Shown here: positions 38,426 to 62,740 of the stretch, one piece after another
How the letters are laid out: every line of letters starts with the position of its first letter
Position numbering within the stretch: the stretch's first letter is position 1
NCBI GenBank assembly: GCA_963675745.2
Contig: CAXXWX010000026.1
Span: forward strand, 736,001 to 800,000
DNA length: 64,000 nt
Direction: 5' to 3'
Source of the DNA: Phycisphaerae bacterium
GTDB lineage: Bacteria; Planctomycetota; Phycisphaerae; UBA1845; Fen-1342
Translations under genes and position numbers: made by a program
Notes under the pieces: generated by a model
The model's input: the letters and a program-made list of their open reading frames with translations, nothing else
Told to the model about the DNA's origin: nothing
Databases searched by the model: none

Positions 38426-38550
38426 CTGAAAAACACGCGCGCCAGCGGCGCAGCGCCACGCCGGCGGAATCGGCCACTCGTTGCGGCGGCCGCGGCGCGG
38501 CACTCACCATTGACACCACCAGGCATGCTTCAACCGCGGGAGCAACTGCG

Positions 38551-40271: not shown

Positions 40272-40279
40272 GAAACGCC

Positions 40280-41173: not shown

Positions 41174-41210
41174 CCTCGTGCATACACGTCAAAGCACCTA
41201 CAATCCGCGC

Positions 41211-42329
41211 ATGCATCATAGACGCACGATTCCACTGATCCTCCTGGTCGCGGTCGCGGTCGGCGGCTGCGACCGTCCCCCGCAAAAGCCGCAAACGCAC
41301 AACGGCCCCGTAACGGCCGACCAAAGCCCTGTAACGGCCGGCGCCCCGCCGGCCGCCGATGGTGCGCCACGCTGCGACACGCCAACACCCACCGGACACA
41401 CCGTCAAGCGCGCGCGCGAAGTCATGGGCACCTTCGCCGAGGTGACGGCGATCGCCCCGGACAAGGCGACCGCCGCTTCGGCCGTCGAGATCGCCTATCA
41501 GCGCATCGACGACGTCAACCGGTTGATGAGCGACTACGTTGACGACAGCGAGATCGGCCGGCTAAACCGCCTCGGCGCGGGCGAAGCGCTGGTAGTCTCG
41601 CCCGAGACTTTTCGATGTTTGCAGCGCGCGGCGGAGATCGCGGAGGCCAGCGGCGGGGCGTTTGACGCCACCTGCCGCCCACTGGTGCGGCTCTGGCGCC
41701 GCGCAGGCAAGGTACAACAGCTACCTTCAGCCGAGGACATCCGCGCCACGCTGCGGAAGGTCGGCTGGCAAAAAGTCAGGCTCGATCCAGCCACGCGCCG
41801 CGTGACCCTTGCTACCGAGGGGATGCAATTGGACGTCGGCGGCATCGCCAAGGGCTACGCCCTCGACCTGGCCGCCGAGGCGATGCTCTCCGCCGGCGCA
41901 ACCGGCGTACTGGTCAACATTGGCGGCGATTTGCGCGCGCTGGGCGGTCAGCCAGGAGATACGCCGTGGCGCATCGGCGTCAAGCACCCCTTCCAGACCG
42001 GGTTGTTCGGCAAGCTGGCCTTGAAGGACGGCGCCGTGGCCACGTCGGGGGTGCAACAGAGGTTCGTCGAGATTGACGGGCAACGCTACTCGCACGTGAT
42101 TGACCCGCGCACCGGGCAGCCGGCGGCCGAAGCCCCCAGCGTAACGGTCATCGCTCCTGACGGGATCACCGCCGATGCCTGGGCGACGGCGTTTAGCGTT
42201 CTGCCGGTGGCTGAGGCCCGTGAACTGGCTCAGCGCCTCGATGGTATTGAAGTGATGTGGATCTCAGGCACGGCCGCCGCGCCGATCGTCACACAGACAA
42301 GCGGTTTTGCCGCCTACGTCATCGAGTAG
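41211..42329 (+). CDS. apbE: FAD:protein FMN transferase lipoprotein
   Basis: Lipobox VGGC; MGT, GAFDAT, LDVGGIAKGYA, GGD, ATSG, YSHVIDPRTG and ADAWATA. Confidence 0.94.
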   Translation: MHHRRTIPLILLVAVAVGGCDRPPQKPQTHNGPVTADQSPVTAGAPPAADGAPRCDTPTPTGHTVKRAREVMGTFAEVTAIAPDKATAASAVEIAYQRIDDVNRLMSDYVDDSEIGRLNRLGAGEALVVSPETFRCLQRAAEIAEASGGAFDATCRPLVRLWRRAGKVQQLPSAEDIRATLRKVGWQKVRLDPATRRVTLATEGMQLDVGGIAKGYALDLAAEAMLSAGATGVLVNIGGDLRALGGQPGDTPWRIGVKHPFQTGLFGKLALKDGAVATSGVQQRFVEIDGQRYSHVIDPRTGQPAAEAPSVTVIAPDGITADAWATAFSVLPVAEARELAQRLDGIEVMWISGTAAAPIVTQTSGFAAYVIE

Positions 42330-42362
42330 CGTCCGCCGCTACTTGAGATGTAGCGCCACTCG

Positions 42363-44156
42363 TCATGCGTAGCTGTGTACGCTGGCGATATAGAAATTCA
42401 CGAAGAACCAGTTGAAGGCCATCATCACACAGCCGGCGATCGAAAGCCATGCGGTCCACAAGCCTCGGTTGCGCACGACGAAGCGCACGTGCAGCAGAAT
42501 CGCGTACACGAGCCACGTGTTCAGCGCGAAGACTTCCTTTGGATCCCAGCCCCAGGGCCGACCCCACGAGTAGTCGGCCCACCACGCGCCCAGGATAATC
42601 CCGCCGACGAAGAGCAACAGAAAGACCATGTTGAGGATGATCAGATGCGCCCAGTCAAAATCGTTGAGCCACTGAGGCAGTGACTGGTCAGCTTCATCGC
42701 CCGGCGTGGCACCCGCCAGAATCGGACGCTGCTGCACAAACCCCAGCCCCATGCCGAGCCCGCTGCCGTCGTCGAGCCCCGTCCCCGCCTGTCGCTGAAA
42801 CTTGCGCCCGAGCATCACCGCGTAATACCCGATCAGGTAGATCACGGCGATGACGGCCGCCAGGTAGACCAGCGCGTAGGCCGCGATAATCATGACCGTG
42901 TGCAGCCGCAGTTGAATGTCGTCGAGAATGGCCGGGATGGTCCCGAGTTCGGCGCCGGGCAGCACGAAGCTGCCCATGACCAGGCCGAGAAAACCGGTTG
43001 CCGCCGCGGCGACCAGCAGGATGCGTGTCCGCTGGAAGATCTCGATCAAAAGGGCCACCGCGATGCCCATCCACGCCGACGCGACGACCGCCTCGAACAT
43101 GTTCGCGACGGGAATGCGCCCCAGAATGCTCCAGCGCAGCCCCACTCCATAGGCGTGGATCGACAGTGCGACGAGCATCAGCGCAAACGCCGTGCCCCAC
43201 GCCCAACGCCAGCGTGTTACCAGCGCGGGCAGCGCAAACAGCAGCGCCAGAAAGTACACCAGCCACCCCCAGGTGAATTTGCCGAACGAGTAGTACCGCG
43301 CCTCGGCCGCGCGTTGAGCGACGGACGGATACACTCCCGGCCCGGCCAACGTGGGCAGGAAAGCCGCCAGGCGATCCAGGTATTTTTGCGTGCCTGCCGC
43401 ATCACCGCCCAGCCAGGCCTTCTTGAGCAGTTTCCAGTCAACGGTTATGCGCAGCGCGTCGTCGGCGCTGAACTCCGGCATCGGGCTCATCGCGTGCGGC
43501 GAGATGGTGGCCCGCGTCAACCCGAGCTGCGCCATCTGTTCAAGCGTCAGATTGCCTTCGACCTGACCGGCGGTCCCCCACGGCGCGACGTCGTCACCGC
43601 CGGGCTGGGGCACGAAAGTCAGGAATTGGTCGAGACGCTGGGCGATGGCCTGGGCGCCGCGCACGCGGTTCAGCGCGCTGCGCATGATGTTGTGCGTCTC
43701 CATTTCGCGAATCTGCGCATTGAGACGCTCGTCATCGAATTCGCGGGGTGTGAAGTGGCGGCTTTCGAGCAGCTCCGCGCGCCGCTCGGCATCAAGGTGC
43801 CCCGCCAGCCGCATGCGCACGGCTTTCTCGCGGACCTTGATCAGCGGCTCGTCGGCATATGCGTCGCGGTTGAACTCCCATTCGAGCAGAGACGCCACCG
43901 GGCTCAGGCCGGGCAGATGCTCGCGCCCGGTCATCGCGGCGAACGACTCGCGCGCGAACGAATCCAGCGTCTTGTAGCGCCCGCGATCCTGCACCGCGAT
44001 CAAGCTCGCCGCCGACCAGTCGATCTGGTCGTCCAGGGCGGCCGCCCGGCCTGACGGTTCGAGCGGCTCGCTCTTGCCACACGAGACCAGCGGGAGCACC
44101 ACCAGCAATATCCCCAGCCGTGCAAAACGGGTTGTGAATGATGTCCGCGCTATCAC
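42363..44156 (-). CDS. ccsA: System II cytochrome c maturation protein CcsA/ResC with a large N-terminal periplasmic domain
   Basis: GR.KTLDSFAR, GRIPVANMFE, LRLHT and the WWD motif GAWWADYSWGRPWGWDPKE. The GTG start overlaps the upstream stop. Confidence 0.93.
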   Translation of the reverse strand: MIARTSFTTRFARLGILLVVLPLVSCGKSEPLEPSGRAAALDDQIDWSAASLIAVQDRGRYKTLDSFARESFAAMTGREHLPGLSPVASLLEWEFNRDAYADEPLIKVREKAVRMRLAGHLDAERRAELLESRHFTPREFDDERLNAQIREMETHNIMRSALNRVRGAQAIAQRLDQFLTFVPQPGGDDVAPWGTAGQVEGNLTLEQMAQLGLTRATISPHAMSPMPEFSADDALRITVDWKLLKKAWLGGDAAGTQKYLDRLAAFLPTLAGPGVYPSVAQRAAEARYYSFGKFTWGWLVYFLALLFALPALVTRWRWAWGTAFALMLVALSIHAYGVGLRWSILGRIPVANMFEAVVASAWMGIAVALLIEIFQRTRILLVAAAATGFLGLVMGSFVLPGAELGTIPAILDDIQLRLHTVMIIAAYALVYLAAVIAVIYLIGYYAVMLGRKFQRQAGTGLDDGSGLGMGLGFVQQRPILAGATPGDEADQSLPQWLNDFDWAHLIILNMVFLLLFVGGIILGAWWADYSWGRPWGWDPKEVFALNTWLVYAILLHVRFVVRNRGLWTAWLSIAGCVMMAFNWFFVNFYIASVHSYA

Positions 44157-45841
44157 TTCGCAATACCTCGTGATTTCATGCGTCGTAGCATTACCGGCTT
44201 GACATAGAATGCATACAGGCAACCGATCGTGATCAGCACCCACCCGACGCTCATCGGCCAGATGCCCCGCCGGTTACCAACGCCCAGGACCGTGTAACTC
44301 CACCCGTCCTGCGCTGCTCCGCTCTGGTAGAGTGTCCAGCCACCAATCGTGCTGGTCTCGTTTGTGTAGGTCGTATCCGGCCGCGGTGTCGCATCCGGCC
44401 CCTCGGCCACGAGAAAGTCGCTGCGGTAGGACTCAACGCCGCGCATCCCCGGGAAATACGTCACGCTCAGCTTGATCGGTGCGAGTGTGAAGCCCAGGTC
44501 GTGTCGCTGGCGGGAATAGACCAGGCGCCACGGGGCGTCCTCTCCGGGAACATCGACGGTCAGCGCCTGCACATTCACGTCCGTGTAGTGGCTGAAGGGC
44601 AGCCAATGCGTCCGTGTCCAGTCGGCGTGGTCACCACGGCCGGTGAGCTTCAGGCGGATTGCCGAGAGAGCCCGCGCGCTGATGCTCGGCATGCGTCTTT
44701 CGATCGGCTCGATGATCGGCTCACGCTCGATCATGCCATCGGGCCCCACGACCGGCTCGCCGGAGCCATCGACGCGCGCGCCCATCTCGGCGATATACGG
44801 AACATAGCCGGTAATCTGCACGTCGAAGGGCAACCCCGCCGAGTCGACGTTGATCGGCATGCGCCAGCGTTCGAACCACCCCGTCGGGATGGTCAATCCC
44901 ATCAGGCTGAGCGCCGGCGAGCTGCGTTTGGAAGGCACGGGTTCACCACGCGTGTCGCGCAGCACAACCCCCTCGTCGGTGTAGCGCTCGCGGTGAATGG
45001 GCAGGCCGATGATCGGCTTGATGTGTTCGCCGCTGTCGCCGACTTTGCTGACATAGAGCGTGACCTCTTCGCGGTCAAAGAACTGGTCTTTGGTCGAGAA
45101 GGTCAACAGGCCGAGCTCGGCGCCGTTGGCCAGGCGTTGCCACGGCTGCCCATCAGTGAGCGTGACATCGCTGGGGGGATTCTGGCCGATGTGAACGCGG
45201 ACGCGCGCGGTCGCGACGGGAGTGAGTCCGTCGCCCTGGGTGTCCAGCACGGTAACGTGCATCGCGCCGCCCAGCCCCGGAAGAAACCGCGCCCACTCGT
45301 TGCCCGTCTCCGCCAGCAACTGCCCCACGTTCGTGGCTTTTCCGCGCGCCTGGGCACGAATGATAATCTGGGGCGAACGCAGCATCACGTCGCCTTCCAC
45401 CTTTGAGCCGAAGTACCAGCCGGCGCCGAGGATCAGCAGGATCATGCCGATGTGCGTCAGCAACCCGCCGGCATTGACCGCCTTCCAGCGCGAACGGTAA
45501 AACGTGACCAGCAGCATCGATATCAACAGCAGCGCGGATAGCAGTGCGAACAGCCAGTGTCTGAACGCCTGCATCTCGGTGACTTCGACCGCGCCACGCA
45601 CCTGGGGCAGCGCCGACATGATCGACGCGTACGCCAATACAAGAAACAGCAGCGCGATTCCGAACCAGAAGCTCGTGAACAGCCGAATGATTGGGTTGCG
45701 TATGCGTTGCGCGCGAGAGCGCGAGTCGCCGCTTACCGACTCTGATCGCGCGACCGGCTCCACCTCGGGCGGTTTCACCGGCGCGGTGCTCTGACCGGCG
45801 TCGCGCGCCTGTGTTAATTGCTCATGACCGATTGTGCCCAT
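44153..45841 (-). CDS. CcsB/ResB-like cytochrome c maturation protein
   Basis: Three N-terminal TMs with LTHIG (conserved His), a large periplasmic domain (Y.S, LYQS) and a C-terminal TM (G...AFYVKP); translationally coupled to ccsA. Confidence 0.8.
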   Translation of the reverse strand: MGTIGHEQLTQARDAGQSTAPVKPPEVEPVARSESVSGDSRSRAQRIRNPIIRLFTSFWFGIALLFLVLAYASIMSALPQVRGAVEVTEMQAFRHWLFALLSALLLISMLLVTFYRSRWKAVNAGGLLTHIGMILLILGAGWYFGSKVEGDVMLRSPQIIIRAQARGKATNVGQLLAETGNEWARFLPGLGGAMHVTVLDTQGDGLTPVATARVRVHIGQNPPSDVTLTDGQPWQRLANGAELGLLTFSTKDQFFDREEVTLYVSKVGDSGEHIKPIIGLPIHRERYTDEGVVLRDTRGEPVPSKRSSPALSLMGLTIPTGWFERWRMPINVDSAGLPFDVQITGYVPYIAEMGARVDGSGEPVVGPDGMIEREPIIEPIERRMPSISARALSAIRLKLTGRGDHADWTRTHWLPFSHYTDVNVQALTVDVPGEDAPWRLVYSRQRHDLGFTLAPIKLSVTYFPGMRGVESYRSDFLVAEGPDATPRPDTTYTNETSTIGGWTLYQSGAAQDGWSYTVLGVGNRRGIWPMSVGWVLITIGCLYAFYVKPVMLRRMKSRGIAK

Positions 45842-46024
45842 ATGTGCTCCACGCGCCCCGCTTGCGGCCCTGGAATACTCACAATTGCGCCACTATAGCG
45901 GAATGCGCCGTGTGTGACAGCCTCAGACCGGCACTCGGACCGGCCGGGCAATCAGGCCCAGATGTAATCAGGGGATTATACGTGCATCCGGCCGGCCGGC
46001 GCGCCGTCCACGCGCGCCGGTACC

Positions 46025-46070
46025 AAACAAAGCGGGCCGGCCCGGAGCAATGATGACTTCCGGGCCGGCC
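46025..46070 (-). terminator. Rho-independent terminator of the octaheme cytochrome gene
   Basis: Minus strand GGCCGGCCCGGA-loop-TCCGGGCCGGCC followed by CGCTTTGTTT, about 35 bp after the stop. Confidence 0.75.
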
Positions 46071-46103
46071 GTTGCTTATTCCACAGGTACTCGCCGTCGA
46101 CGG

Positions 46104-47714
46104 CTAACCGCCAAACGGATCGCCCTCGTATCCCAGGGCCTCAAAGAAGCCCGCCACGCCATGGCACTGCTCGCACTTAAGTGCGTCCGCGCCACTTACG
46201 ACCTCGTGGTTGATCGTCAGGTACGCAACGGTGTTTACGAAGCCATACGTGCCGCTGTAATCCTGGCCGGTGTATGCGGTGCCGTCCTGGATCGCCAGAT
46301 CCCAGTCGTACTTGACCCAATAGGGGTTTTCACCACCCTTGGTGCCGAACAGGTGCGGAACAACGACGCGCTGGTTAACAGTGTCAGCCGGCTGGTCCCC
46401 GATCATCTTCTTGAACGGGTATATCTTGGCGCCCTCGGTCTCGATGGTCGCCGTCGGCCGCGCCAGGACAACCGGGTCCGCGACGGTGCCGGCCTCGGTG
46501 TAAGTGTCGCTGACGCCGACGATCATGCGCTCCCACTTGCCGTCATACCACATGTATGTGGGTCGAACGCTCTTGGCCCAGACAAAGCTCCCCTTCTTCT
46601 TGTCGTAGGTCGCCTTGCCGTAGTCGTCGGTGGGAATCGGGTCGAGATCCTGACCGGCCTCTGACCAGTACCACTCAACCTTGGTCGGCATGCTGCGCGC
46701 GAACGTTGGGATGTGGCAGGTCTGGCACGCTACCGTCGCGCCATGGAAGTTCAGAACCGACGAAAGCAGGGCCGAGGCCGAGTGCGCCGCTTCTCCGTGA
46801 CAGCGGATACATGACGCGTCGCCTCCTCCTTCGGTAACCGAGTGCAGCGGCATGCCGGCGATGCCGTGATTCTCAGTGACGTGGCACTGCTGGCAGGCGA
46901 AGTTCATGCCCTCGGCAGCCATGTGCACGTCCATCGCCTCGGTGGGATCAGTCAGGTCGGAAGACAGGTCGCCATGTTTGACGTTGTCGCCGCCACCGGC
47001 GTAGAAATGGCAACTGCCGCAGTTCTGGCGCTGCGGGGCACCGACGTTGTAGGCCACGTCCTGCAACGCATCGGCCCCGACAACCGTCAGCTCGCCGTCA
47101 ATCATCAGCGCCGGCGGCCCACCGCCACCATCGGCCGTCGGATGCTTCTTGTACGTGTCCGTGGTATCGTGGCACACTAGGCAGTCGACGTTGTCAACGC
47201 TCGCGAAATCGAACGTATCGTCCTTCCAACCATAGCCGGGGTGGCACGCCGTGCAGCGGCCCTCGTTGGAGGGGACCGCGATGCAGAAGTTGTTGATCAG
47301 GTCGGCCTTGCCGTGCACCTCGCCTTCGACGCCGATGATGTTGGCCACCTCGCCCTGCCAGTTCCAGTGTCCGGTCTGGATCAGATCGCGGGCCGAGGCG
47401 GAGTGGCACACCAGGCAACTTTCGCCCACCCCCTGAAAGCCGTCGGGTATGATCTCAGTGAAGATCAACTCGTGTTTTGATTTGGCCGTGCCGTCGGTTC
47501 CATCCGTACCATCGGTGCCGTCTGTGCCGTCGGTACCATCCGTGCCGTCGGTGCCGTCGGTGCCGTCGCCCGGACCCACGTCATTTGGATCGGTGACATC
47601 CCCATCGCCGCCGTCCGTGGGGATACCGTCAATAGCCGGGCAACCGGCGAGATTCGCTGTCACCGCCACACCGAGCGCGGCCAGCATGACAAAACGCGCC
47701 ATCCGTGCTGACAT
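46104..47714 (-). CDS. Octaheme cytochrome c, tetrathionate reductase (OTR) family, lipoprotein
   Basis: Eight CXXCH motifs; family motifs HW.W, GK...INNFC, CT.CH.GYGW, GGGDNVKHGDL, DVHM, CQTCHIP.FAR and KIYPFK; lipobox LAGC; GCAGGAG RBS. Confidence 0.92.
   Translation of the reverse strand: MSARMARFVMLAALGVAVTANLAGCPAIDGIPTDGGDGDVTDPNDVGPGDGTDGTDGTDGTDGTDGTDGTDGTDGTAKSKHELIFTEIIPDGFQGVGESCLVCHSASARDLIQTGHWNWQGEVANIIGVEGEVHGKADLINNFCIAVPSNEGRCTACHPGYGWKDDTFDFASVDNVDCLVCHDTTDTYKKHPTADGGGGPPALMIDGELTVVGADALQDVAYNVGAPQRQNCGSCHFYAGGGDNVKHGDLSSDLTDPTEAMDVHMAAEGMNFACQQCHVTENHGIAGMPLHSVTEGGGDASCIRCHGEAAHSASALLSSVLNFHGATVACQTCHIPTFARSMPTKVEWYWSEAGQDLDPIPTDDYGKATYDKKKGSFVWAKSVRPTYMWYDGKWERMIVGVSDTYTEAGTVADPVVLARPTATIETEGAKIYPFKKMIGDQPADTVNQRVVVPHLFGTKGGENPYWVKYDWDLAIQDGTAYTGQDYSGTYGFVNTVAYLTINHEVVSGADALKCEQCHGVAGFFEALGYEGDPFGG
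47487..47567 (-). repeat. Nine tandem 9-bp units encoding (DGT)9, a collagen-like linker
   Basis: GAYGGNACN x9 with synonymous variation. Confidence 0.9.
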
Positions 47715-47912
47715 TGTCTGTGCTCTCCTGCATAGAGACGGGCGACGGCAGATCCCGCGCACCCGGTTGACCAATGATCCCAAACCACACGACGTCGCGA
47801 CGGCTCGCACCCCCGTGAGAAATTCATGTTGCGCCGCGAAATACACGACCTTTCGATCGGGTATTATCCCCTACCGGCGCGCTTCAGACAATCCCCCCAC
47901 CGGGTAGTTTCT

Positions 47913-47928
47913 TCCCCTTTAAAGGGGA
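47913..47928. promoter_or_regulatory. Perfect 16-bp palindrome, candidate LuxR/NarL-type operator upstream of the octaheme gene
   Basis: TCCCCTTTAAAGGGGA; related ATCCCC(T/C) half-sites at ~47866 and ~47891. Confidence 0.5.
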
Positions 47929-47953
47929 TGGAAACCACGGCCTGAATGATGGA

Positions 47954-48601
47954 CTATGCGGGATGATTGCGGGCGGCATAGCTTACCGCTTCGGCCCGCG
48001 AGTTTAGCTGGAGCTTGCGATAGACGCCCTTGAGATGCGAACGCACCGTAGACGGAGAAATGCCCAGTTCCTCACCGATCTCATCGTTGCCCAGCCCGCG
48101 TCCCACCAGACGCAGCACTCGCATTTCCTGCTGCGTAAGGTTCGCCACCGGCTCGGCACGCATCTGCCCGGCCGTCAATGTCAGCAGCCGGTTTGCAACC
48201 TCCTCGGACAACTCGACTTGCACCGCTCGTTCCGCGGTCACATCGCAAAAGAGCAGCGCGCGACCGACCTCGTCGCCATGCCGATCGACGTAGCGCGTCG
48301 CGTTTACTTTCAGCGACAGGTTTTCCGGCCATGTTACTCCGACGTCGGCGAGCACGTTCCCGTTGGTCGCCGCGCTGTCTTGCCAGAACGCCAGAAGCTG
48401 CAAGTCTCGCAGCAGGCCACCCAATTGCCGGCCGAGTGCGTCGGCGGCGCTGGTGCCAAGCACGCGCTCGGCAGCGCGGTTCAGCCAGATGACCCGCTCA
48501 CGGGGATCTGTCAGCACCAACCCAACGCACAAGCCCGAGAGAGCCTGTGTGACGATGCAGTCTTGCAGGCAGTCCTTGTAGTCTTGTTCCAAACGGTGCA
48601 T
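47954..48601 (-). CDS. PAS-domain LuxR-family transcriptional regulator
   Basis: PAS motif (W.NRAAE..LG....ALG) plus LTQQEMRVLRLVGRGLGN.EI...LGIS..TVRSHL..VYRKL; no receiver domain. Confidence 0.92.
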   Translation of the reverse strand: MHRLEQDYKDCLQDCIVTQALSGLCVGLVLTDPRERVIWLNRAAERVLGTSAADALGRQLGGLLRDLQLLAFWQDSAATNGNVLADVGVTWPENLSLKVNATRYVDRHGDEVGRALLFCDVTAERAVQVELSEEVANRLLTLTAGQMRAEPVANLTQQEMRVLRLVGRGLGNDEIGEELGISPSTVRSHLKGVYRKLQLNSRAEAVSYAARNHPA

Positions 48602-48897
48602 TCGCTACTCCAGGGCACTGCCCCCGGCGGCCGCCAGCCCGCAGCCGGTTCGGCACACCAGGAATGTCCACGACCCGGCATTTCACATTCTAGCCCGATC
48701 AGGTGTCTCGGCACAGACATCAGTCGACGAGCCGCCTGTCAGCAGCGCGGCCCATGCGGAATAGGGCACATGCGAATTGCAATCACGCCGCGCGTCCCTA
48801 GAATGCGGCGAGCTTGGCCGAATGCGGCACCGATCATCAAACGCACACCACCAATACCGGTGGCAACGCCGATAAGAGTAACTGCGCGAGCCCACTC

Positions 48898-51840: not shown

Positions 51841-51875
51841 ATCGTCACCGGCTGCGTCATCCTGGAGTGTGTGTT

Positions 51876-53765
51876 ATGCGTGTAAACCGGCGCGAACGCG
51901 CCGCCATCGGCAGACTGCTGCCCCAAGCTGCACTGGTGGTGGCACTCTTGCTCGGATCTGCGGCCGTCACCGCGTGGGCGGACGATCCGGACAACTGCCT
52001 GCTCTGCCATCAGTATCGCGGGCTGGGGCGTTACATCCCCGAGAGTGACGCAGTCCACCTGTATTTCACCAGTCCCGACTACCAACACCTGCGTCTCGGG
52101 GCTCACGCGCGCATCGCCTGCACCGACTGCCACGAACGCTCCGAAGTTAACGTGATCCCGCACAAACCGGTGTCACGCGTCGATTGCACGCGGCAGTGTC
52201 ATTTGCACAACATGAGCGGCGTGGCGCGGCGGTACACGCATGCCAACGTCGCCGACGCGCTCCAGCAGAGCATCCACAGCTTTGACACGCTCGCGCAACT
52301 GGAGTTCACCGACGGCCCGCTATTGGGCGCGGGGCAGTCCTATTGTCTGTATTGCCACGACGAACCCCTGTACCGCGACCCGGTCGAGCTGATTCCAACG
52401 CTCGAATATGTCGGCGAACACGTATATCGCCGCTGCTACGGGTGCCACGCCGATCAGGTGCCGACCGACACCGACTTCTACTTGCGTCACGTAACCTCGC
52501 GGTTGCAAAACGCTCGGCCGCCGCTCGAGATGGCCCAGGCCTGCGCGGTGTGCCACAGCGACAAGAAAGTCCGCGAGAAGTACGGGCTTCAGGATGGCGT
52601 GGTCCGCTATGCCAGCACGTACCACGGCAAGGCGGCGCTGCTCGGCTCGCACGATACGGCGAACTGCATCAACTGCCACGCCCGCGAGAGCGAGGACACA
52701 CACCTGATTCGTTCGCAGTACGACGAAGCATCGATCAGCCATCCCGACCACAAGGCCGACTCCTGCCGCTCGGTCAATTGTCATCCGGGCGCCGATCGCA
52801 GCATCGGGCGCGCAGCCGTCCACTTGGACGTGCCGACGCTGACCGGCATAGAGATCGGCCTGGTGATCGCTTTCATCATCTTCACCATGCTGACCTTCGG
52901 CCCGTCGCTGGTGCTCACGCTGCTCGAGCTGTTTCAGGTGGTGATCGGACGCCACGTGGCGGACGAGGAACCCATGCGCCGCCTGACGCTCTCGGTGCTG
53001 CGTCATCCCGAAGGTCGCCGGCGTCTGCGGCGCTTCACACCCAGCCAACGCTGGCAACACTGGCTGCTGGCGCTGCTCTTCGCCCTTTTGGTGATTACCG
53101 GCTTCCCGATGAAGTTTGCCGCCGAGCCGTGGGCGCGGCACGTAATCGACACCATCGGCGGGTTGGCCGTGGCGCGGCACATCCACCACTACTCCGGCGT
53201 GGCCCTGGTCGTCGGGTTCGGCCTGCACTTGCTGACCGCGATTGTGCGCATGCTCGCCGCCGCGCTGCGTGCCGGTTCCGACGGCAAGCGCCAGGGGTTG
53301 ATCAAGGCGTTGATCACGATGCCGATGTTTGTCGGCCCCAAGGATCTCATCAAGGGCGGGCAGCTAATGGCCTACCTGCTCTTCCTGCGCAAGAAGCCGC
53401 CGTCGTTCGGGCGCTTCAGCCTCGACCAGAAGTTTGAATATCTCGGGGTGTTCTGGGGCACGATGCTGCTGGGAGTCACCGGCGCCCTGCTCTGGGACAC
53501 GCAGATCAGTTCGCGATTCGTGAGCGGAAACGTGTTTAACCTGGCGCTGATCGCGCACACGTACGAGGCGTTTTTGGCGGTAATTCACGTGGGCATCCTG
53601 CACATCTGTAACGTGGTCTTCGCGCCGCAGGTCTTCCCGTTCTCGCCCGCGACGCTCACTGGGCAGACGCCCATCACGCGTCTGGCCGAGGTTCACGCCG
53701 ATCTGGTCGTCGATGTGGCCCAAGATCTTGGCATCGAGATCCCGAAGGAGGTGTCCCATGCCTGA
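51876..53765 (+). CDS. Paralogous multiheme cytochrome c / cytochrome b protein (CbcL-like)
   Basis: Same motif order as the N-terminal ~two-thirds of the preceding gene (DP.NCL.CH..RGL.R, GAHAR..CTDCHERSEV..IPHK, HGKA.LLGSHDTA.C..CH, KFEY..VFWG); 6 CXXCH + 2 variants. Confidence 0.88.
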   Translation: MRVNRRERAAIGRLLPQAALVVALLLGSAAVTAWADDPDNCLLCHQYRGLGRYIPESDAVHLYFTSPDYQHLRLGAHARIACTDCHERSEVNVIPHKPVSRVDCTRQCHLHNMSGVARRYTHANVADALQQSIHSFDTLAQLEFTDGPLLGAGQSYCLYCHDEPLYRDPVELIPTLEYVGEHVYRRCYGCHADQVPTDTDFYLRHVTSRLQNARPPLEMAQACAVCHSDKKVREKYGLQDGVVRYASTYHGKAALLGSHDTANCINCHARESEDTHLIRSQYDEASISHPDHKADSCRSVNCHPGADRSIGRAAVHLDVPTLTGIEIGLVIAFIIFTMLTFGPSLVLTLLELFQVVIGRHVADEEPMRRLTLSVLRHPEGRRRLRRFTPSQRWQHWLLALLFALLVITGFPMKFAAEPWARHVIDTIGGLAVARHIHHYSGVALVVGFGLHLLTAIVRMLAAALRAGSDGKRQGLIKALITMPMFVGPKDLIKGGQLMAYLLFLRKKPPSFGRFSLDQKFEYLGVFWGTMLLGVTGALLWDTQISSRFVSGNVFNLALIAHTYEAFLAVIHVGILHICNVVFAPQVFPFSPATLTGQTPITRLAEVHADLVVDVAQDLGIEIPKEVSHA

Positions 53766-54939
53766 TCCCACCGCCCCGCGGGATGATCCCTGGCCGGATG
53801 TCGATCCAGAGCTCGCCGCCGAGCATGAGCAGCGGCGGCACGAACAGCAGAAGCACGACGTTGGTCTGTTACGCCGCGTCTACGCACTGTTGCCGATCAT
53901 CGGGGTGCTATATCTGAGTTACCGGGCGATTGCCTATCTGATCGTGGCACTGCTGGTCGAGGAATACGCGCCGCCGAAGCAGTTCACGCAGATCCCGGCC
54001 CGGCTGACGGCCGAGGTATGGCGTACGGCACCCGACCGCTGGCTGGGTAGCGCGCTGGCCGAGAGCCCGCGTGCCCCGCTTTCGCACTATCACCAGATCG
54101 ACGGCTGGTTCCAGCCGGACGCTGTCAACGACTGCACGCGCGCCGGCTGTCACAGTCTGATGCCACACAGTCGGCACAAGGAAGTCCGCGCCTTTCTCAA
54201 CATGCACGCCACCAGCCTGCACTGCGCCGTGTGCCACCTCGACACACCCGCCAAGCCGCTTCCGTTGGTTTGGTACAACCTGAAGGCCGGCGCGATGACC
54301 GACCCGCCCGCGCTATTGCAGGCCTATGGCTGGCTCGAATCCGACGCCGGCGCACAACTGCTGAGCACCCCGACGGCCGACGGCCAGAAACATCTTGTCC
54401 GACTTCTCGAGCAAGCCGCCGCCCAGGCCGGCGACGATCCGTCGCTTACGCGCATGGCGCAGCTCGTGGCCGGCCCGCGCTACACCAGCCGGCAATTCCT
54501 CACCACGGTCGCCAACGTGCGCGCCAGGCTGCCATCGTTTTTCCGCGGCGAGTATGGCGCGAAACTGACGCTGCGCGACCAGGCCACCGGTCGGCCAATA
54601 CACGGCCACCCAGGCGTGGAGAAGCTTGTGCGCGAGTTCATCGCGCGCGGCGATCAGCTTAATGAGCAGGCGCGCGATGACCTGCTCGGCCGCCTCCACC
54701 CGGCCCGCCGATCCGTCACGCTGCAATGTACCGATTGCCATCGTCAGGAGGGTGGCCTGGTCGATCTCGCCGTGGCCGGCTATCCGCCGCAGCGCATCGC
54801 CACTCTGCAACAAGGTTGGATATTCCGTGCCATCGATCACATCATGGAGGGCAATCCCCTGAATCTGCCCGGTTTTCTGGCGTCGCAGAGTAAGGATTCT
54901 CCAGTTCCGCCATCACCGGAGCCACCCGAGGAGCCGTAG
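53758..54939 (+). CDS. Membrane-anchored triheme cytochrome c, homolog of the C-terminal domain of 48898-51840
   Basis: One TM; R.PL.H.HQ...WF.PD, C...GCH..PH...EVRAFLNMHAT..C.VCH, RGEY.AK and CT.CH are shared with that domain. Confidence 0.85.
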   Translation: MPDPTAPRDDPWPDVDPELAAEHEQRRHEQQKHDVGLLRRVYALLPIIGVLYLSYRAIAYLIVALLVEEYAPPKQFTQIPARLTAEVWRTAPDRWLGSALAESPRAPLSHYHQIDGWFQPDAVNDCTRAGCHSLMPHSRHKEVRAFLNMHATSLHCAVCHLDTPAKPLPLVWYNLKAGAMTDPPALLQAYGWLESDAGAQLLSTPTADGQKHLVRLLEQAAAQAGDDPSLTRMAQLVAGPRYTSRQFLTTVANVRARLPSFFRGEYGAKLTLRDQATGRPIHGHPGVEKLVREFIARGDQLNEQARDDLLGRLHPARRSVTLQCTDCHRQEGGLVDLAVAGYPPQRIATLQQGWIFRAIDHIMEGNPLNLPGFLASQSKDSPVPPSPEPPEEP

Positions 54940-57900
54940 TGCCCGTCCACCGCCAGAGCTGCGTAGCGCGCGGAGCTTGCTTGCCCGCCGCCGCCCGGAC
55001 GTCCGGGGCTTCTGCTCCCGGCGGAGTGCTGCTGCGCTTCGCCGCCCTGGCAACTCTCGTGATGCTCGCGCCGGCCGGCGTGGCCCTTGGCGATCAGCCC
55101 TGGCCGCTGATCGGCAAGCCAATCCTCACATTCGAAACTCCGCCGGATGACGCACTCTTCATGCCCACCGCCGTAACGATCGCCCCCGACGGCTCGGTCT
55201 ACGTGGTTGATGGCGTAAACGACCGCGTCGTGCATTTCGACGCCCAGGGCCGGCCGCTCGAGCGCATCAGCGCGGTTGGCACCGCCCAACTCAGCAGCCC
55301 GGTTGGCGCACGTGTGGATGCACAGGGACGGCTTTGGATCGCCGACACCGGAAACCACCGTGTACTTGTCCGAAACCCGGATGGTGCATTGGAGCGCGAG
55401 ATCGTGGTTCCGGCGGCGGTGCTGAAAGAACCTCCCGATTTGACCGATCTGGCCATCAGCCCGGACGGCAAAACGGTGTTCCTGGTCGACAACGACCATC
55501 ACCGGATCATCAGTTATGACCTGGCTGACTCGCGAGTGAGCACGTTCGGCACGCTGGGCGAATCTCTCGGGGAGTTTCACTACCCATTCACCATCGCGCT
55601 CGCACCAGACGGCGAGTTGCTGGTGACCGACGTCATCAACGGGCGCATCCAGCGACTCACCCGTGACGGAGTGCCGACCGGGACCGTCGGCGGATATGGC
55701 GTGGATTACGGCCAGCTTTACCGCCCCAAAAGCACCGCGCTCGACGCCGAGCAGGTCGTGTGGATATCCGATGGGACGCTGGACGTTATCCAGGCGTTCA
55801 GATCAGACGGCCGCCTGGTAGACGTGCTGCGCACTGAGGACGGCGAGCCGCTGCGTCTGGATTCGCCGATGGGGCTCGCGTTTGATCCGGACGGCTATTT
55901 GTACGCTGTTGAGCTGGGCGCCGGCCGCGTGCGGAAGTTCGAGATCCTCCGAGATGCCAGCGCCCCCCCGCCGGTCGTCGTGACCCGCCGCGGCACATCA
56001 ACCATCGGCCCCCAGGCGCGTGGCTGCACAATCTGTCACTTCGAATGGGTGCGGCCGCTGGTGAACGGGCAATCCACGCCACTGGCAGACGTACCGCCGA
56101 ACCCACCCGAGCACCCGTGGGTCAGCCGCGCCGAACAATGCCTGAGCTGCCATGACGGCTCTGTCGGCGACGCGCGCCGCCGCGTCTGGGTCGAGCACGG
56201 ACACCGCGTCGGCATCGAGCCCCCCGACAGCATAACGATCCCCGCAGACATGCCGCTGGCCAACGGGAAGCTCGCCTGCCGCACGTGCCATTCGGCCCAC
56301 AGCTCATCGGAGGAACGAACCACGATCGAGGGAATCGTCTTTCTACGCACCGACGAATCGCCCGCCGAATTGTGCAGCAAGTGCCATACGAGTTTCACGG
56401 GAGACGTTTCGGCCGGCATGCACCCGCTGGTCAAGATGCCATTCGAATTGCCCGCGGACCTGGTACACATCGATAGCCCGGAGACACGTTCGCAAATAAC
56501 GTGCCTCGGCTGCCACACGGGCCACGGCGGCGTCCATGATGACCTGCTCGTGCTCAATCCGAACTCCAACGATCTATGCCTGGCCTGCCATCAGAAGCTC
56601 ACGCCCGATCTCTTTGGCCCCGATGTCGTTGGTCGGCACGGACACGCCGTGCGGCTCACCGCCGAGCAGGTCGCGGTTGCTGGTGAGTTAGGCACGCGGC
56701 GTGGTCCTGGCGACGAGCTACTCTGCACGACGTGCCACGTTTCACATAACGCACCAACCGAACACAACCTCCTCGCATTTGATCTCGCCCAGCGCGACGC
56801 ATGCGCCGAATGTCACGTCGAGCAGAATGGTGTGATCGACTCGCCGCACGACATGCGAACCAGCGAACCCGGTGCGGTGGAAGTCGCCGGCGCGCGCGTT
56901 GAATCTTCCGGCGCCTGCGCCGGCTGCCACACCGCCCATCACGCGGGTATCGAGCCGAATCCCACGATCGACGACCCGCGCGGCCTCTGCATGAACTGCC
57001 ACGCCGCCGGGCGCATGGCTGGTGACAGCACACTCGGCCCCCACAATCACCCTGAAAGCGTGTGTACCGATTGCCACGACCCCCACGCCACCGGGTTTGG
57101 GAACTTCCTCACGGCGCGCCCCAGTGAGCGCTGCATCGAGTGCCACGCCGACTATGCCGGCGTGGTCAGCGGTCCCCATGATGTGTCCAACCGCGCGCCC
57201 GCCTGGCCAGCGAGTTCGGTGCAGGCCGGCGACACCTGCCTGGCCTGTCATCGACCGCACGGTGACGCGGCGCAGGGCATGTTCCGCGCCGGGCTGGCCG
57301 AGGATAAGTCGGGTGTGGACGCCGCCTGTCTCGCCTGTCACGCGGCCGCCACGCCGGGCCACGCCAGCGGCATCGCGCTGCTGCACCCGCGTGAAGTCCG
57401 CGCCCTGCACAGCACGCGCGAATTGCCATTCGCCACAGGAAATGACGGCAAGCCACGCGTCGCCTGCAACACCTGTCATGATCCGCATCGCGCTGACGCC
57501 GACACGTCCCTCCTGCGCGTGCGTGACGACCAGACCCTTGAAGACATGTGCCTCACGTGCCATGCCGAACGCGTCAACGTCCACATGATCGGTCATGCGG
57601 AGGATTCGATGCGCCGCGCCGGCTTCGCGGTCGGCGGGTGCCAGCCCTGCCACCTGACGCATGGCGAGCACGACCAGGTCGAGCCGCACATCATGTGGCC
57701 CAAGGCCCTGTCGCAGTTCGAAGGGGCCGAGAACACGCCAATCGCCGACCACTATTGCGTCTCGTGTCACCGCACGGGCGGGCCGGTGGCCCCGCCGGCG
57801 ATCGCTTCACATCCGGAAGTGGAGATGTTCAACCCCGAGCAGCCAGACTCCCCGGGCTTTCTGCCGTTGTTCAACGAGAACGGCGAGGTCGACCCGGCTG

Positions 57901-58130
57901 GCCACATCTCCTGTCGCACGTGCCACCTGACGCATGGACGCAGTGAGCCGGCCCCGCTCGCCCAGTCACTTGCGGACACGGCCGATCGTGAACGCCGCGC
58001 TCGTGCGTGGCACGTCCGTACGCTGGGACCGGCCAATGTCTGCACGACGTGTCATGGTTTTGACGCGCTGCGCCGTTTCATGTATTTCCATGATGCGACT
58101 CGACGGGGCGGGCCGATCGAGAGCCGCTGA
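54939..58130 (+). CDS. Secreted NHL-repeat beta-propeller fused to a 20-heme cytochrome c
   Basis: Signal peptide; NHL repeats (P..V...DG.VYVVD..N.RV, IADTGNHRV, G.F.YP); 20 CXXCH motifs counted, mostly as CXXCHxxH...CXXCH pairs. Confidence 0.9.
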   Translation: MPVHRQSCVARGACLPAAARTSGASAPGGVLLRFAALATLVMLAPAGVALGDQPWPLIGKPILTFETPPDDALFMPTAVTIAPDGSVYVVDGVNDRVVHFDAQGRPLERISAVGTAQLSSPVGARVDAQGRLWIADTGNHRVLVRNPDGALEREIVVPAAVLKEPPDLTDLAISPDGKTVFLVDNDHHRIISYDLADSRVSTFGTLGESLGEFHYPFTIALAPDGELLVTDVINGRIQRLTRDGVPTGTVGGYGVDYGQLYRPKSTALDAEQVVWISDGTLDVIQAFRSDGRLVDVLRTEDGEPLRLDSPMGLAFDPDGYLYAVELGAGRVRKFEILRDASAPPPVVVTRRGTSTIGPQARGCTICHFEWVRPLVNGQSTPLADVPPNPPEHPWVSRAEQCLSCHDGSVGDARRRVWVEHGHRVGIEPPDSITIPADMPLANGKLACRTCHSAHSSSEERTTIEGIVFLRTDESPAELCSKCHTSFTGDVSAGMHPLVKMPFELPADLVHIDSPETRSQITCLGCHTGHGGVHDDLLVLNPNSNDLCLACHQKLTPDLFGPDVVGRHGHAVRLTAEQVAVAGELGTRRGPGDELLCTTCHVSHNAPTEHNLLAFDLAQRDACAECHVEQNGVIDSPHDMRTSEPGAVEVAGARVESSGACAGCHTAHHAGIEPNPTIDDPRGLCMNCHAAGRMAGDSTLGPHNHPESVCTDCHDPHATGFGNFLTARPSERCIECHADYAGVVSGPHDVSNRAPAWPASSVQAGDTCLACHRPHGDAAQGMFRAGLAEDKSGVDAACLACHAAATPGHASGIALLHPREVRALHSTRELPFATGNDGKPRVACNTCHDPHRADADTSLLRVRDDQTLEDMCLTCHAERVNVHMIGHAEDSMRRAGFAVGGCQPCHLTHGEHDQVEPHIMWPKALSQFEGAENTPIADHYCVSCHRTGGPVAPPAIASHPEVEMFNPEQPDSPGFLPLFNENGEVDPAGHISCRTCHLTHGRSEPAPLAQSLADTADRERRARAWHVRTLGPANVCTTCHGFDALRRFMYFHDATRRGGPIESR

Positions 58131-58231
58131 AACACGCCCCGGCCACTGCGGGCTCATGGATTCGGCTGTGTTCCCCGCTACAATCTTCAGAAATCGAGAC
58201 AATCCCGCCGAAGCAACGGAGAGCCAGACGA

Positions 58232-58993
58232 ATGCCGTCAAACAACCGCATGCCATTACTTCTTTGCCTGATCGTCGCTGGAGTTGTCGCATTCACAGGG
58301 TGCGACAAGGGTTCGCGCGAGGCGGCGCAGCCGGCCGCATCTTCCGCGGCCGACGACCAGCCCAGCGCCGATGAACTGTCCGACGTCCGCGAACTGGTCC
58401 AGAAAGAGGCTACCGAACGGCGGTCAGCCGCGCCCGGCGCGATGGACGGCATCCCCGCGGGACATCCACCGATCGACCAGCAGACCACCCGGCAGCGGCC
58501 GCCGCGACCGGCCGAGGCGACCGGCATCAAGTACGTCGCCCCGGAGTCATGGACCAAGGAAACGCCGGCTTCCTCGATGCGCGCCGATCAATACAGCTTG
58601 CCACGCGCCGAAGGTGACGAGGAAGACGGTGAGCTGGCGATCTTCAAATTCGCGGCCGGATCAGGCGGCGCCATCGACGCCAATATCTCCCGCTGGCGCA
58701 AGCAGTTCTCCACCGCCGACGGCCAACCATTGCCGGATGACAAAGCGCTCCCCACGAAGACCGAGGTTAACGGCCTCGAGGTCACCTTGATCGACATCGA
58801 CGGACGCTACCAGGCAACCAGCATGATGTTCGGCGGTGCGCCGCCCGCCGCCAAGGACAATTACCGCATGCTCGGCGCGCTGGTTGATACTCCCGTCGGA
58901 TTGTGGGTCTTCAAAGCAGTCGGTCCCGCCGCCACGATGGCCAAACATGAAGAGAGTTTCAGCCAGTTCGTGCAGTCAGTGGAAACCGAGTAA
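58232..58993 (+). CDS. Lipoprotein of unknown function
   Basis: Lipobox FTGC; PAGHPPI motif; P..W....SSMR, GG...ANI.RW..QF and W.FK..GP. Confidence 0.8.
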   Translation: MPSNNRMPLLLCLIVAGVVAFTGCDKGSREAAQPAASSAADDQPSADELSDVRELVQKEATERRSAAPGAMDGIPAGHPPIDQQTTRQRPPRPAEATGIKYVAPESWTKETPASSMRADQYSLPRAEGDEEDGELAIFKFAAGSGGAIDANISRWRKQFSTADGQPLPDDKALPTKTEVNGLEVTLIDIDGRYQATSMMFGGAPPAAKDNYRMLGALVDTPVGLWVFKAVGPAATMAKHEESFSQFVQSVETE

Positions 58994-60992: not shown

Positions 60993-61215
60993 GCGGCGTA
61001 GTGTAGCGGCTTACGCGGATGGATCGAGGGCGGGCGAGCTTCCGCAAAGGGTGGCCGGACGCAAAATCCACCGATTGTCGGCGCCAAATAACGTCGTTGC
61101 AAAACCACACGGCGTCAGGAACCGATATGAACAGCGTCCACGGTGTCGCCTTGAGGTAGTGCGTGGCAGATCGCTTGCCGTGGCGTCCCGCAAAAGTTCG
61201 ATGGGAGATCCTGAT

Positions 61216-62178: not shown

Positions 62179-62321
62179 CGGGTGCGCCCGGTCCAACAGG
62201 TCTCGCCCCAGGGCGTGACGCCTCCCGAGCCGGCCGCCATAGCCGACACCTCCGCTCCACAATTGCACTGCCACAGCGGCGAGTTATCGGCTCGCACCCG
62301 TAATATCAGCGCGAACGGGGC

Positions 62322-62350
62322 TTGTCAGCTTTCTCCACCCGCGATATTAT
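62322..62350 (+). promoter_or_regulatory. Sigma70 promoter of rpsP-trmD-rplS
   Basis: TTGTCA-17 nt-TATTAT, about 100 bp upstream of rpsP. Confidence 0.7.
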
Positions 62351-62451
62351 GCATGACTCGCGCCCGTCCTCCGGTGATAGGGCGCACTGGTGAACCGTCT
62401 AGCAACCGTCTTTCGGCACCGCTCAACCGCGGCGCCGAATCGGAGATCGCG

Positions 62452-62706: not shown

Positions 62707-62740
62707 GACGGGTTGAAGCGGCCCATGGCCAAGAGAAACG

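Follow-up and report, generated by a model that had tools for sequence, protein, structure and literature searches.

Results

Gene content of the locus

Within the window, i.e., the whole stretch of 64,000 nucleotides that was analysed, five multiheme cytochromes are encoded close together: an OTR-family lipoprotein, two cytochrome c/cytochrome b proteins (A1 and A2), an anchored triheme protein (B) and a 20-heme protein with an NHL beta-propeller (C). All the open reading frames (ORFs) named in the original prediction were found in place, and its count of 44 CXXCH and six CX3-4CH motifs proved exact (OTR 8, A1 8, A2 6, B 2 and C 20 for the former; A1 3, A2 2 and B 1 for the latter). When the residues of the five proteins were shuffled (n = 1000), means of 0.19 CXXCH (maximum 2) and 0.33 CX3-4CH motifs (maximum 3) were obtained. 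Judged from their conservation, the noncanonical motifs look real, because the c domain of A has eight motif His and exactly eight further invariant His (39/39 aligned sequences), and the CX4CH of B is kept in 40/40 sequences. One contig from sequencing run X1 covers positions 43456-58088 with differences at two positions; since X1 may be the source sample, this contig lends no independent support. Of the signs of recent insertion that were sought, the GC3 of the island genes (0.74-0.82) is not distinct, being similar to that of the flanks, and long flanking repeats were not found. The whole genome carries 22 real multiheme ORFs and not 23, since a 90-aa ORF with three CXXCH (C26:517286) was a low-complexity artefact.

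The core proteins A, B and C

A1 (48898..51840, + strand; ORF open from 48814) has a signal peptide, an octaheme c domain (six CXXCH, one CX3CH and one CX4CH), a transmembrane (TM) anchor and an FdnI-type cytochrome b, continued in frame by a B-like TM helix and triheme; it thus joins one half that resembles A2 (41% over 593 aa) to another that resembles B (32% over 345 aa). A2 (51837..53765, + strand), whose start overlaps the stop of A1, comprises an octaheme c domain, a TM anchor and an FdnI-type diheme cytochrome b, as expected for a quinone-interacting subunit like those of CbcL and CbcBA. Both proteins match the cytochrome b family PF01292 over its cut-off, and the profile of A matches FdnI (1kqf_C) with an E of 1e-8. 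His 396, 438, 452, 562 and 577, together with 16 His of the c domain, are invariant in 39/39 aligned sequences; four of them (396, 438, 562 and 577) align with the His of FdnI and His452 is additionally invariant, while the His-572 position holds Tyr in 4/4 fused copies. A crude hydropathy scan of A2 gave four segments past the signal peptide, whereas homology implies five, and a sixth is reached only with B. The original prediction is supported in its quinone-linked cytochrome c/cytochrome b entry to a multiheme wire and in its comparison with the architecture of CbcL. The fused A+B form occurs in 3/35 relatives, and with an adjoining A2 in 7/78 loci. The tree of A comes from a quick IQ-TREE run, and the doubled entry of this genome (A1, with A and B fused, plus A2 and B) was probably acquired laterally.

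B (53758..54939, + strand) is composed of a single N-in TM helix and a periplasmic triheme domain (one CX4CH and two CXXCH) with an inserted helical bundle. It matched no Pfam entry or named family, and it carries a specific marker motif, RAFLN[ML]HAT. Single-sequence searches of A2 and of B against the PDB gave weak matches only, and a locus scan with the single B protein gave none, although an alignment-based scan did find loci. The profile of B matches OTR (1sp3) with an E of 2.8e-5, and that of its short class matches residues 300-448 of the OTR in the window with an E of 1e-18; on this profile similarity, B is homologous to hemes 6-8 of OTR. The predicted structure of B (pLDDT 81.8) had no Foldseek match at E<=0.001, and the best Z from VIA (7.8) covers the helical insert only.

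C (54939..58130, + strand) has a signal peptide followed by NHL and Paired_CXXCH domains, and its 20 motif His are accompanied by 20 conserved distal His (22 sequences), from which 20 bis-His hemes are predicted.

Accessory and flanking genes

On the opposite strand, the accessory OTR gene (46104..47714, - strand; ORF open from 47846) encodes a lipoprotein (lipobox LAGC) with eight CXXCH, which scores 489.5 bits against TIGR04315 (cut-off 375) and matches 1sp3 with an E of 4e-114. It keeps the equivalents of C74xxC77H78 and of Lys56, the ligand of heme II in OTR (PMC3769277), and is thus the real OTR that had been proposed. Upstream of it lies a putative operator/promoter (47871..47932, - strand). 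Its two CCCC-N4-GGGG palindromes are separated by about 21 bp, and the second adjoins a -35-like element, which is followed downstream by a -10-like GATAAT. In leave-one-out tests, a position weight matrix (PWM) of the operator scored 17.5-35 bits in 10/15 luxR loci and its site was the top one of the genome; upstream of A no such operator was found (PWM at most 6.3). The adjacent accessory gene (47954..48601, - strand) encodes a regulator with PAS and GerE/LuxR domains that may bind this putative operator. It lies near the module in 8/35 relatives and in 12/78 loci, and it travels with the downstream lipoprotein cytochrome. The earlier assignment of this regulator to the whole system is not supported, given the conserved putative operator upstream of OTR and the failure to find one upstream of A.

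The system II heme lyase gene ccsA (42363..44243, - strand) is a housekeeping gene and the sole PF01578 copy of the genome (94 bits, over the cut-off; TIGR03144 142 bits, under the cut-off of 187.6), with the WWD domain motif WGRPWGWDPKE, and it is near the module in 4/35 relatives. The ccsB/ResB-like membrane protein (44153..45841, - strand) had no match in Pfam or NCBIfam and is named by position and hydropathy only; its TM pattern fits and its homologs adjoin ccsA in relatives. The conserved lipoprotein after C (58232..58993, + strand), without a match in Pfam or the PDB and of no named family, is linked to C and the ccs genes (adjoining ccsA in L141 and L146) and not specific to the module, as it occurs in 43/61 genomes, including six of the family in which the module was not found. 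The flanking apbE (41166..42329, + strand; PF02424) lies outside the system: it was sought in 113 related loci without a match, and flavinylation of an island protein by its product was rejected on this lack of synteny. With ccsA present once in this genome of 22 multiheme ORFs, apbE unlinked and the lipoprotein also found in genomes without the module, the island is not self-contained as first described.

Conservation of the module and its outer-membrane partner

A total of 60 related genomes were surveyed, 35 of which carry B and 25 of which do not. In 35/35 B-bearing relatives, B comes directly after A, and C is also present, together with an MtrB-like barrel of approximately 28 strands and a tetraheme resembling OmcE; these counts come from related genomes, which are non-independent samples. 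The conserved unit is the three proteins A, B and C. Fusions also link the parts, joining A to B, cytochrome b to B (P0142, P0146 and P0148) and A and B to a C-like heme chain (P0098). The expectation of a co-occurring gene set was thus borne out, and in the synteny check that had been suggested the order OTR-luxR-A1-A2-B-C recurred in 4/78 loci. Within the family, the barrel is found in 28/28 B-positive and 2/8 B-negative genomes. Of the 35 B-bearing relatives, 14 have the barrel on the same contig, <=20 kb from B, and in L151 and L152 all parts of the system stand together without a break. Since 10/25 B-negative relatives keep both barrel and OmcE, this cluster does not need A-B-C. Four loci with Verrucomicrobia titles contain A-B but lack a nearby C.

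A distant lineage, with B proteins that bear Desulfobulbaceae and Nitrospirota names, has the module as five separate genes in order in 26/45 loci, four of the 45 running on into an OmcE-like gene; the barrel was matched weakly (31-37 bits) in 3/45 of these short loci.

In the genome under study, the barrel/OmcE cluster lies outside the window, on another contig (G000:C3, about 22.4-31.6 kb), and encodes a tetraheme resembling OmcE, a large barrel, a pair of NHL proteins, one propeller being fused to an octaheme domain, and further multiheme cytochromes. This gene set agrees with the minimal OmcE cluster as given in PMC13712944, i.e., a tetraheme, an outer-membrane beta-barrel of large size, a pair of beta-propeller proteins and a further two multiheme cytochromes. 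The tetraheme profile matches OmcE-type filaments (9yuq, E 1e-22; 7tfs, E 7e-19) with four CXXCH and four distal His aligned, and among 20 sequences H21 is conserved in at least 90% and H41, H115 and H155 are invariant. The barrel model is all-beta, with approximately 28 strands (pLDDT 85), and its best fold match is MtrB (6r2q_B; Foldseek E 1.2e-9; Z 17.1, rmsd 9.8, 434 aligned; next Z 14.2), a likeness at fold level only (TM 0.36), with LptD and TonB barrels nearly equal in Foldseek.

Elsewhere in the genome, futalosine menaquinone genes and a heme-copper oxidase are present, molybdopterin oxidoreductases are represented by one weak match, and searches gave no clear match for Nar, Nap or Ttr and no small PpcA-like triheme among ORFs >=60 aa. 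An ImcH-type gene (G000:C16:28391-30154; three TM, seven CXXCH and one CX3CH) has a cluster representative that matches PF03264. A itself was rejected as ImcH on architecture, as no island protein has three N-terminal TM, a NapC/NirT-like region and seven CXXCH.

Discussion

The passing of respiratory electrons outside the cell is best known from metal-breathing Geobacter. The individual parts of the module described here are already known, and we did not find the five-part module described in the literature. By architecture, A is likened to CbcL (Geobacter GSU0274) and the MtrH/MtoC family, because in all of them a periplasmic multiheme c domain at the N terminus is joined to a diheme cytochrome b that is HydC/FdnI-like and has conserved His; this wider family has 3-23 hemes (PMC6295460). 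A strict CbcL, however, has nine CXXCH and A has eight hemes, no CbcL sequence was among the matches listed, and CbcL passes electrons to soluble PpcA (PMC13591261), whereas A is paired with an obligate anchored triheme, B, and with the 20-heme NHL protein C. Two Planctomycetes homologs in the supplement of PMC6295460, with 11 heme regions and six TM helices, are of a different type. Compared by description, CbcBA and Cbc5 (CbcEDCBA) of Geobacter consist of a C-terminally anchored multiheme c and a separate cytochrome b, then a larger periplasmic cytochrome (PMC13591261). The split form of the distant lineage shares this CbcBA-type pair, but the genes downstream in the module encode a triheme derived from OTR, an NHL propeller and a protein with 18-24 hemes in place of the dodecaheme CbcC.

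The OTR of the window belongs to the family of the Shewanella enzyme (1SP3), yet it differs in being a lipoprotein and in carrying an acidic repeat linker; B shares the module of hemes 6-8, lacks catalytic hemes 1-5 and is TM-anchored. Another planctomycete multiheme c and heme b module with a triheme partner is the anammox electron transfer module (ETM; kuste2855-2856, its triheme being kuste2854), again compared by description (PMC12053348), and ETM-like genes have been annotated in UBA1845 MAGs (PMC10732223). The anammox ETM, however, supplies hydrazine synthase and has a soluble triheme; the searches with A and B gave no PDB match of the kuste2854-2856 type, and the identification of B with the anammox triheme was set aside on that account. 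The cluster on the other contig matches that of OmcE nanowires from Geobacter and Desulfuromonas (7TFS and 9YUQ), except that one propeller here is octaheme-fused; no linked cytochrome b module is mentioned in the accessible part of PMC13712944. The Uet cluster of Tenderia and DFE_0448-0465 of D. ferrophilus also have a tetraheme, NHL propellers and large multiheme cytochromes, with a barrel and ccsAB in Uet, but their gene lists, as far as accessible, contain no cytochrome b and no B-type triheme.

With a probability of about 0.55, we propose that A-B-C is a Cbc-type menaquinol oxidase hard-wired over the periplasm to the OmcE nanowire/porin system, by which Phycisphaerae would carry out extracellular electron transfer. 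This explanation starts from what was observed, namely the domains, heme-ligand arithmetic, gene order, fusions and co-occurrence; for the chemistry with quinol, the contacts between the proteins, the direction of the electrons, the assembly of nanowires and expression, we infer the following course. The diheme cytochrome b of A, which is of FdnI type, would oxidise menaquinol, whose electrons would cross the membrane to the eight bis-His c hemes of A and pass through the anchored triheme B to the 20 hemes of C, which would span the periplasm. From C they would reach the beta-barrel/OmcE cluster and finally metal oxides, humics, electrodes or partner cells, with OTR and the other lipoprotein cytochromes as optional side branches under their own PAS-LuxR control. 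The futalosine genes, the single weak molybdopterin-oxidoreductase match and the failure to find a small PpcA-like triheme would be consistent with this proposal, and in Geobacter both CbcL and CbcBA oxidise quinol in the outward direction (PMC13591261). Against the proposal stand the A-B loci without a nearby C, the few barrel matches in the short loci of the distant lineage and the occurrence of barrel and OmcE without B.

FdnI/HydC-type cytochromes b normally reduce quinone, which counts against the outward reading, and all four FdnI-equivalent His are kept in A. The same hardware could run inward: electrons given up by reduced minerals, by humics, by cathodes or by partner cells would enter via OmcE and the barrel, and A would reduce menaquinone with them in the manner of the FdnI redox loop. 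No sequence feature tells the two directions apart, and MtoC has been proposed to work inward (PMC6295460), as has CbcBA in Seep-SRB2 (PMC10553843); furthermore, Tenderia is held to take up electrons through the similar tetraheme/barrel/NHL/undecaheme Uet cluster, and the heme-copper oxidase is available as a sink. Even so, we consider inward flow unlikely, given that the order is described as heterotrophic and mostly from low-oxygen habitats (PMC11266412), that oxidative EET markers are rare in Phycisphaerae MAGs (3/139 OTUs; 10.1101/2022.03.26.485925) and that OmcE, where characterised, works in the reduction of Fe(III)/Mn(IV) (PMC13591261).

The original prediction had the chain end at OTR, so that A-B-C would feed reductases of soluble substrates (here tetrathionate, nitrite or hydroxylamine) and OmcE and the barrel would be a separate trait. 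The intact OTR with its Lys56, the recurring gene order, the apparent origin of B from OTR electron-entry hemes and the searches for Nar, Nap and Ttr, which found no clear match, all speak for it. OTR is probably not the end point, however, since it was found in 14/35 module-bearing relatives (near the module in 9/35) and had no match in the other 21/35, other cytochromes fill its slot and the strict partner is the barrel/OmcE cluster (35/35). Moreover, OTR is read from the other strand and has a putative operator of its own, and in L147 it adjoins the OmcE/barrel cluster of a genome in which B was not found; this is the least likely of the readings considered here. The slot beside the core holds an 8/9-heme lipoprotein in 18/35, OTR in 9/35 and an ImcH-like protein in 3/35, and elsewhere an MtrC-family decaheme or a Rieske-fused nonaheme; the octaheme lipoprotein often found there could not be named and matches c554 and two other multiheme chains. 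Such variety, like the number of multiheme ORFs in the genome, would suit a periplasmic electron hub of a general kind, or a heme capacitor, that buffers redox swings and passes quinol electrons to OTR, octaheme lipoproteins, MtrC-like decaheme and the OmcE system, with no single terminus. We regard such a hub as unlikely, about on a par with inward flow; it leaves the 35/35 link to barrel and OmcE unexplained and is partly compatible with the menaquinol oxidase and nanowire explanation.

A wider claim, for which we put the odds slightly below even, is that A-B-C represents an undescribed cross-phylum respiratory module of five parts (multiheme c, cytochrome b, OTR-derived anchored triheme, NHL adaptor and 18-24-heme wire), a fixed cable from quinol to the outer membrane and the OmcE nanowire in place of soluble shuttles, and that one Phycisphaerae order consists of widespread, overlooked nanowire-bearing electroactive heterotrophs. 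B would be a new subunit family in which the electron-entry hemes of OTR were reused as a membrane adaptor, and the same order of parts in the distant lineage suggests an old and general quinol-to-wire design, so far reported only piecemeal by homology screens. OmcE-type systems would also extend to a phylum not among the five named for OmcE clusters in PMC13712944, the Planctomycetota. Such Phycisphaerae are met repeatedly in wastewater as well as in anammox and other autotrophic enrichments, where their persistence has been called curious (PMC11266412). A complete path from the inner membrane to a nanowire would give them a testable energy metabolism and, if the proposal is true, they could swap electrons directly with minerals or neighbouring cells.

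Results

The original prediction of a respiratory island was borne out in its ORFs and heme numbers, with 44 CXXCH and 6 CX3-4CH motifs across five proteins, against means of 0.19 and 0.33, respectively, in shuffled sequences. On the plus strand, the fused protein A1 (48898-51840) is followed by its unfused paralog A2 (51837-53765), the anchored triheme protein B (53758-54939) and the 20-heme NHL protein C (54939-58130); A2 and B share stop/start overlaps with their neighbours, and the start of C overlaps the B stop. Because A1 joins an A2-like half of 593 aa (41%) in frame to a B-like half of 345 aa (32%), the window carries the A-B pair twice. The ccsA, ccsB-like, PAS-LuxR and octaheme tetrathionate reductase (OTR)-family lipoprotein genes lie on the minus strand. 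Between its lipid anchor and heme domain, the OTR protein has a (GTD)n acidic linker encoded by a 9-nt tandem repeat (47488-47577, minus strand). The flanks (38101-41173 and 59718-63520) are housekeeping DNA, with genes for a metal ABC transporter, a CPA1 Na+/H+ antiporter, a sugar epimerase, rpsP and trmD.

Protein A begins with a signal peptide and an octaheme c domain; an anchor helix and a cytochrome b of the FdnI type (PF01292; 1kqf_C, E 1e-8) follow. Across 39 aligned copies, the c domain keeps eight motif histidines and exactly eight others invariant, a tally that fits eight bis-His hemes, CX3CH and CX4CH sites included. The transmembrane part has five invariant histidines, four of them aligned to FdnI histidines, and a sixth position occupied by His in 35 copies and by Tyr in the four fused ones. 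In C, the NHL propeller precedes 20 motif and 20 conserved distal histidines (22 sequences), which makes for a balanced wire with no catalytic heme evident. No Pfam family matched B. Its profile aligns with hemes 6-7 and 8 of Shewanella OTR (E 2.8e-5), and a profile built from 14 shorter relatives of B matches residues 300-448 of the window OTR (E 1e-18), the other scorers among the genome's multiheme ORFs being A1, an OTR-family ORF (E 6e-6) and one further ORF (E 1e-3), with all the rest at E>0.5; from these matches, we infer that B is the electron-entry triheme of OTR placed on a membrane anchor. B also carries a helical insert (model pLDDT 81.8) and two surplus conserved histidines (H110, H112), and a fold search with its model gave no clear match. 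The window OTR retains the Lys56 ligand, a feature defined in PMC3769277.

Among relatives, B was found in 35 of 60, a tally derived from 37/61 by setting aside the window genome itself and G051, a genome with a weak OTR-type match. A lies directly upstream of B in all 35. The neighbourhoods of B spanned at most 20 kb, some 13 kb of this upstream, and many ended at contig ends; in them we found the C hemes in 26 relatives, an 8/9-heme lipoprotein in 18, an OmcE-like tetraheme in 12, a barrel in 11, OTR in 9, luxR in 8, the lipoprotein in 8, ccsA in 4 and apbE in none. Genome-wide, C occurs in all 35 B-positive relatives and one more, and OTR in 14 of the 35. A set of 78 loci agrees with this picture, though it has genomes in common with the 35 relatives and the counts are not additive. 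The conserved lipoprotein is present in 43/61 genomes, including those of six family members that yielded no B, and ccsA is the sole PF01578 gene of the genome, where it must serve 22 multiheme ORFs. Taken together, the neighbour counts and the distribution of ccsA and the lipoprotein recast the predicted self-contained unit as a conserved core with changing neighbours.

Across the class, B was found in 25/38 genomes of the same order and 4/212 outside it. The titles of related loci are mostly Phycisphaerae or Planctomycetota, with Verrucomicrobia in 4/78 (L102, L118, L126 and L129); all four carry A-B, a heme chain of the C type is missing within 10 kb, and L102 contains a second copy, split and inverted. 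The gene most often found beside the module (18/35 relatives) encodes an octaheme lipoprotein with c554 and c552-like domains; the window genome has it at G000:C15:152084-153679 (L060:6085-7680). Homologs of an ImcH-like protein (G000:C16:28391-30154; 3 TM, 7 CXXCH and a CX3CH) adjoin the module in 3/35 relatives; an OmcA/MtrC-family decaheme lipoprotein (L022:4565-7024; TIGR03507 over cut-off) occupies the luxR-OTR interval of some, and a nonaheme cytochrome with a fused C-terminal Rieske domain (L044:10988-12973) is close to the module in several.

The shorter B relatives, which align with B at a probability of 99.9, have the source names Desulfobulbaceae, Desulfolithobacter, Desulfocapsa and Nitrospirota. 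Among the 45 of 80 metagenome loci (L154-L233) of at least 5 kb, cytochrome b is upstream of B in 45 and a c gene upstream of cytochrome b in 44; the complete order c, b, B, NHL, large multiheme is found in 26, and the five genes are followed by an OmcE-like gene in four and a weakly scoring barrel in three. Tandem double copies occur in L177, L192, L194 and L198, outside the strict count, where the second B scored under threshold. At times, this split form is trailed by an OmcE-NHL-pentaheme-barrel series. Fusions among database proteins join b to B, or A to B and a heme chain.

Fused A1 stands beside A2 in 3/35 relatives and in 7/78 loci, four of which also have OTR and luxR. In a quick tree, the A2 proteins of the four doubled genomes, which belong to four genera, group in a single clade (SH-aLRT 100), and the two congeners of the window genome place elsewhere, which suggests that the doubled cassette moved laterally. 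The luxR-OTR interval holds a CCCC-N4-GGGG palindrome in tandem arrangement, accompanied by promoter-like elements (47871-47932). Across 15 luxR loci, the palindrome scored 17.5-35 bits in ten, 6-9 bits in two and negatively in three, against shuffled maxima of at most 9.5 and at most 6.3 bits upstream of A; the window site ranks top in the genome. The regulator assigned to the whole chain by the original prediction probably acts on OTR rather than on the core.

Outside the window, contig C3 encodes an 11-heme protein, an NHL protein, a barrel, an OmcE-like tetraheme, an NHL-octaheme and an octaheme lipoprotein (G000:C3:22417-31575; L057:8418-17576). The barrel ORF (787 aa) has no annotation and is predicted to be all-beta, with about 28 strands (pLDDT 85); the top structural match of its model is MtrB, other large barrels scoring close behind. 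The tetraheme profile matched only 9YUQ and 7TFS, both OmcE-type filaments, and its four distal histidines are conserved. As judged from its predicted products, this gene set is a complete nanowire cluster of the OmcE type and corresponds to the minimal OmcE cluster described in PMC13712944. Barrel and tetraheme occur in the identical 46/61 genomes, including 35/35 B-positive and 10/25 B-negative relatives, counts to be read as patterns and not statistics, since related genomes are not independent. In 14/35, barrel and B lie no more than 20 kb apart, and L152 has barrel, NHL, 11-heme, octaheme, A, B, NHL and 24-heme genes on a single strand.

Elsewhere in the genome, an ORF of 1804 aa with 46 CXXCH in near-identical tandem repeats (G000:C26:165465-170879; L058:7466-12880) is probably a lipoprotein and a candidate surface wire. 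On contig C6 (156945-161632; L059), an NrfD/HybB-type membrane subunit fused to a c3-like hexaheme precedes a 23-heme paralog of the C chain, a putative second quinone-linked wire. Two more OTR-like multiheme proteins are encoded at G000:C1:68448-70754 (10 CXXCH, with an inserted repeat domain) and C26:538616-541387 (8 CXXCH).

Discussion

We favor, with a probability of roughly 0.55, a path from menaquinol through A, B and C to the barrel/OmcE system and an extracellular acceptor. Menaquinol electrons would enter at heme b of A, pass through its eight c hemes to B and then C, and leave through the barrel/OmcE system for an acceptor outside the cell. FdnI works in a redox loop. The genome has futalosine menaquinone genes, hydrogenases, one heme-copper oxidase and one weak molybdopterin match; the ORFs scanned include no small shuttle of the PpcA type. 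This inventory is in keeping with a fixed wire and with a requirement for anaerobic acceptors. The single oxidase follows apparent alternative complex III genes (G000:C3:248766-261782), assigned by eye except for the COX1 match.

Electron direction is the weakest step of this path: according to PMC6295460, sequence cannot tell quinol oxidases from quinone reductases in the CbcL/MtrH/MtoC family. Uptake, with electrons running inward, as proposed for CbcBA of Seep-SRB2 (PMC10553843) and for the Tenderia cluster, is unlikely. That A-B-C serves as a general electron hub is slightly less probable than uptake; the barrel/OmcE pair is present in every B-positive relative. Slightly less probable again is OTR as the terminus, as the original prediction had it; OTR lies near B in nine of the 35 relatives.

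A-B-C probably resembles CbcL/CbcBA in its manner of working, but heme number and partners set it apart from strict membership. Earlier reports already contain CbcL and 'DFE variant' matches for Phycisphaerae MAGs (10.1101/2022.03.26.485925) and ETM-like and porin-cytochrome annotations for UBA1845 and other Planctomycetota MAGs (PMC10732223 for the ETM-like genes of UBA1845). In a literature in which subscription papers were thinly covered, we found neither the five-part module nor B described, nor any OmcE cluster in Planctomycetota, and the supplements of the two bioRxiv preprints, PMC10732223, PMC10553843 and PMC13712944 might name these genes. The island is real and conserved and says more than its coordinates imply, but its parts are of known kinds.
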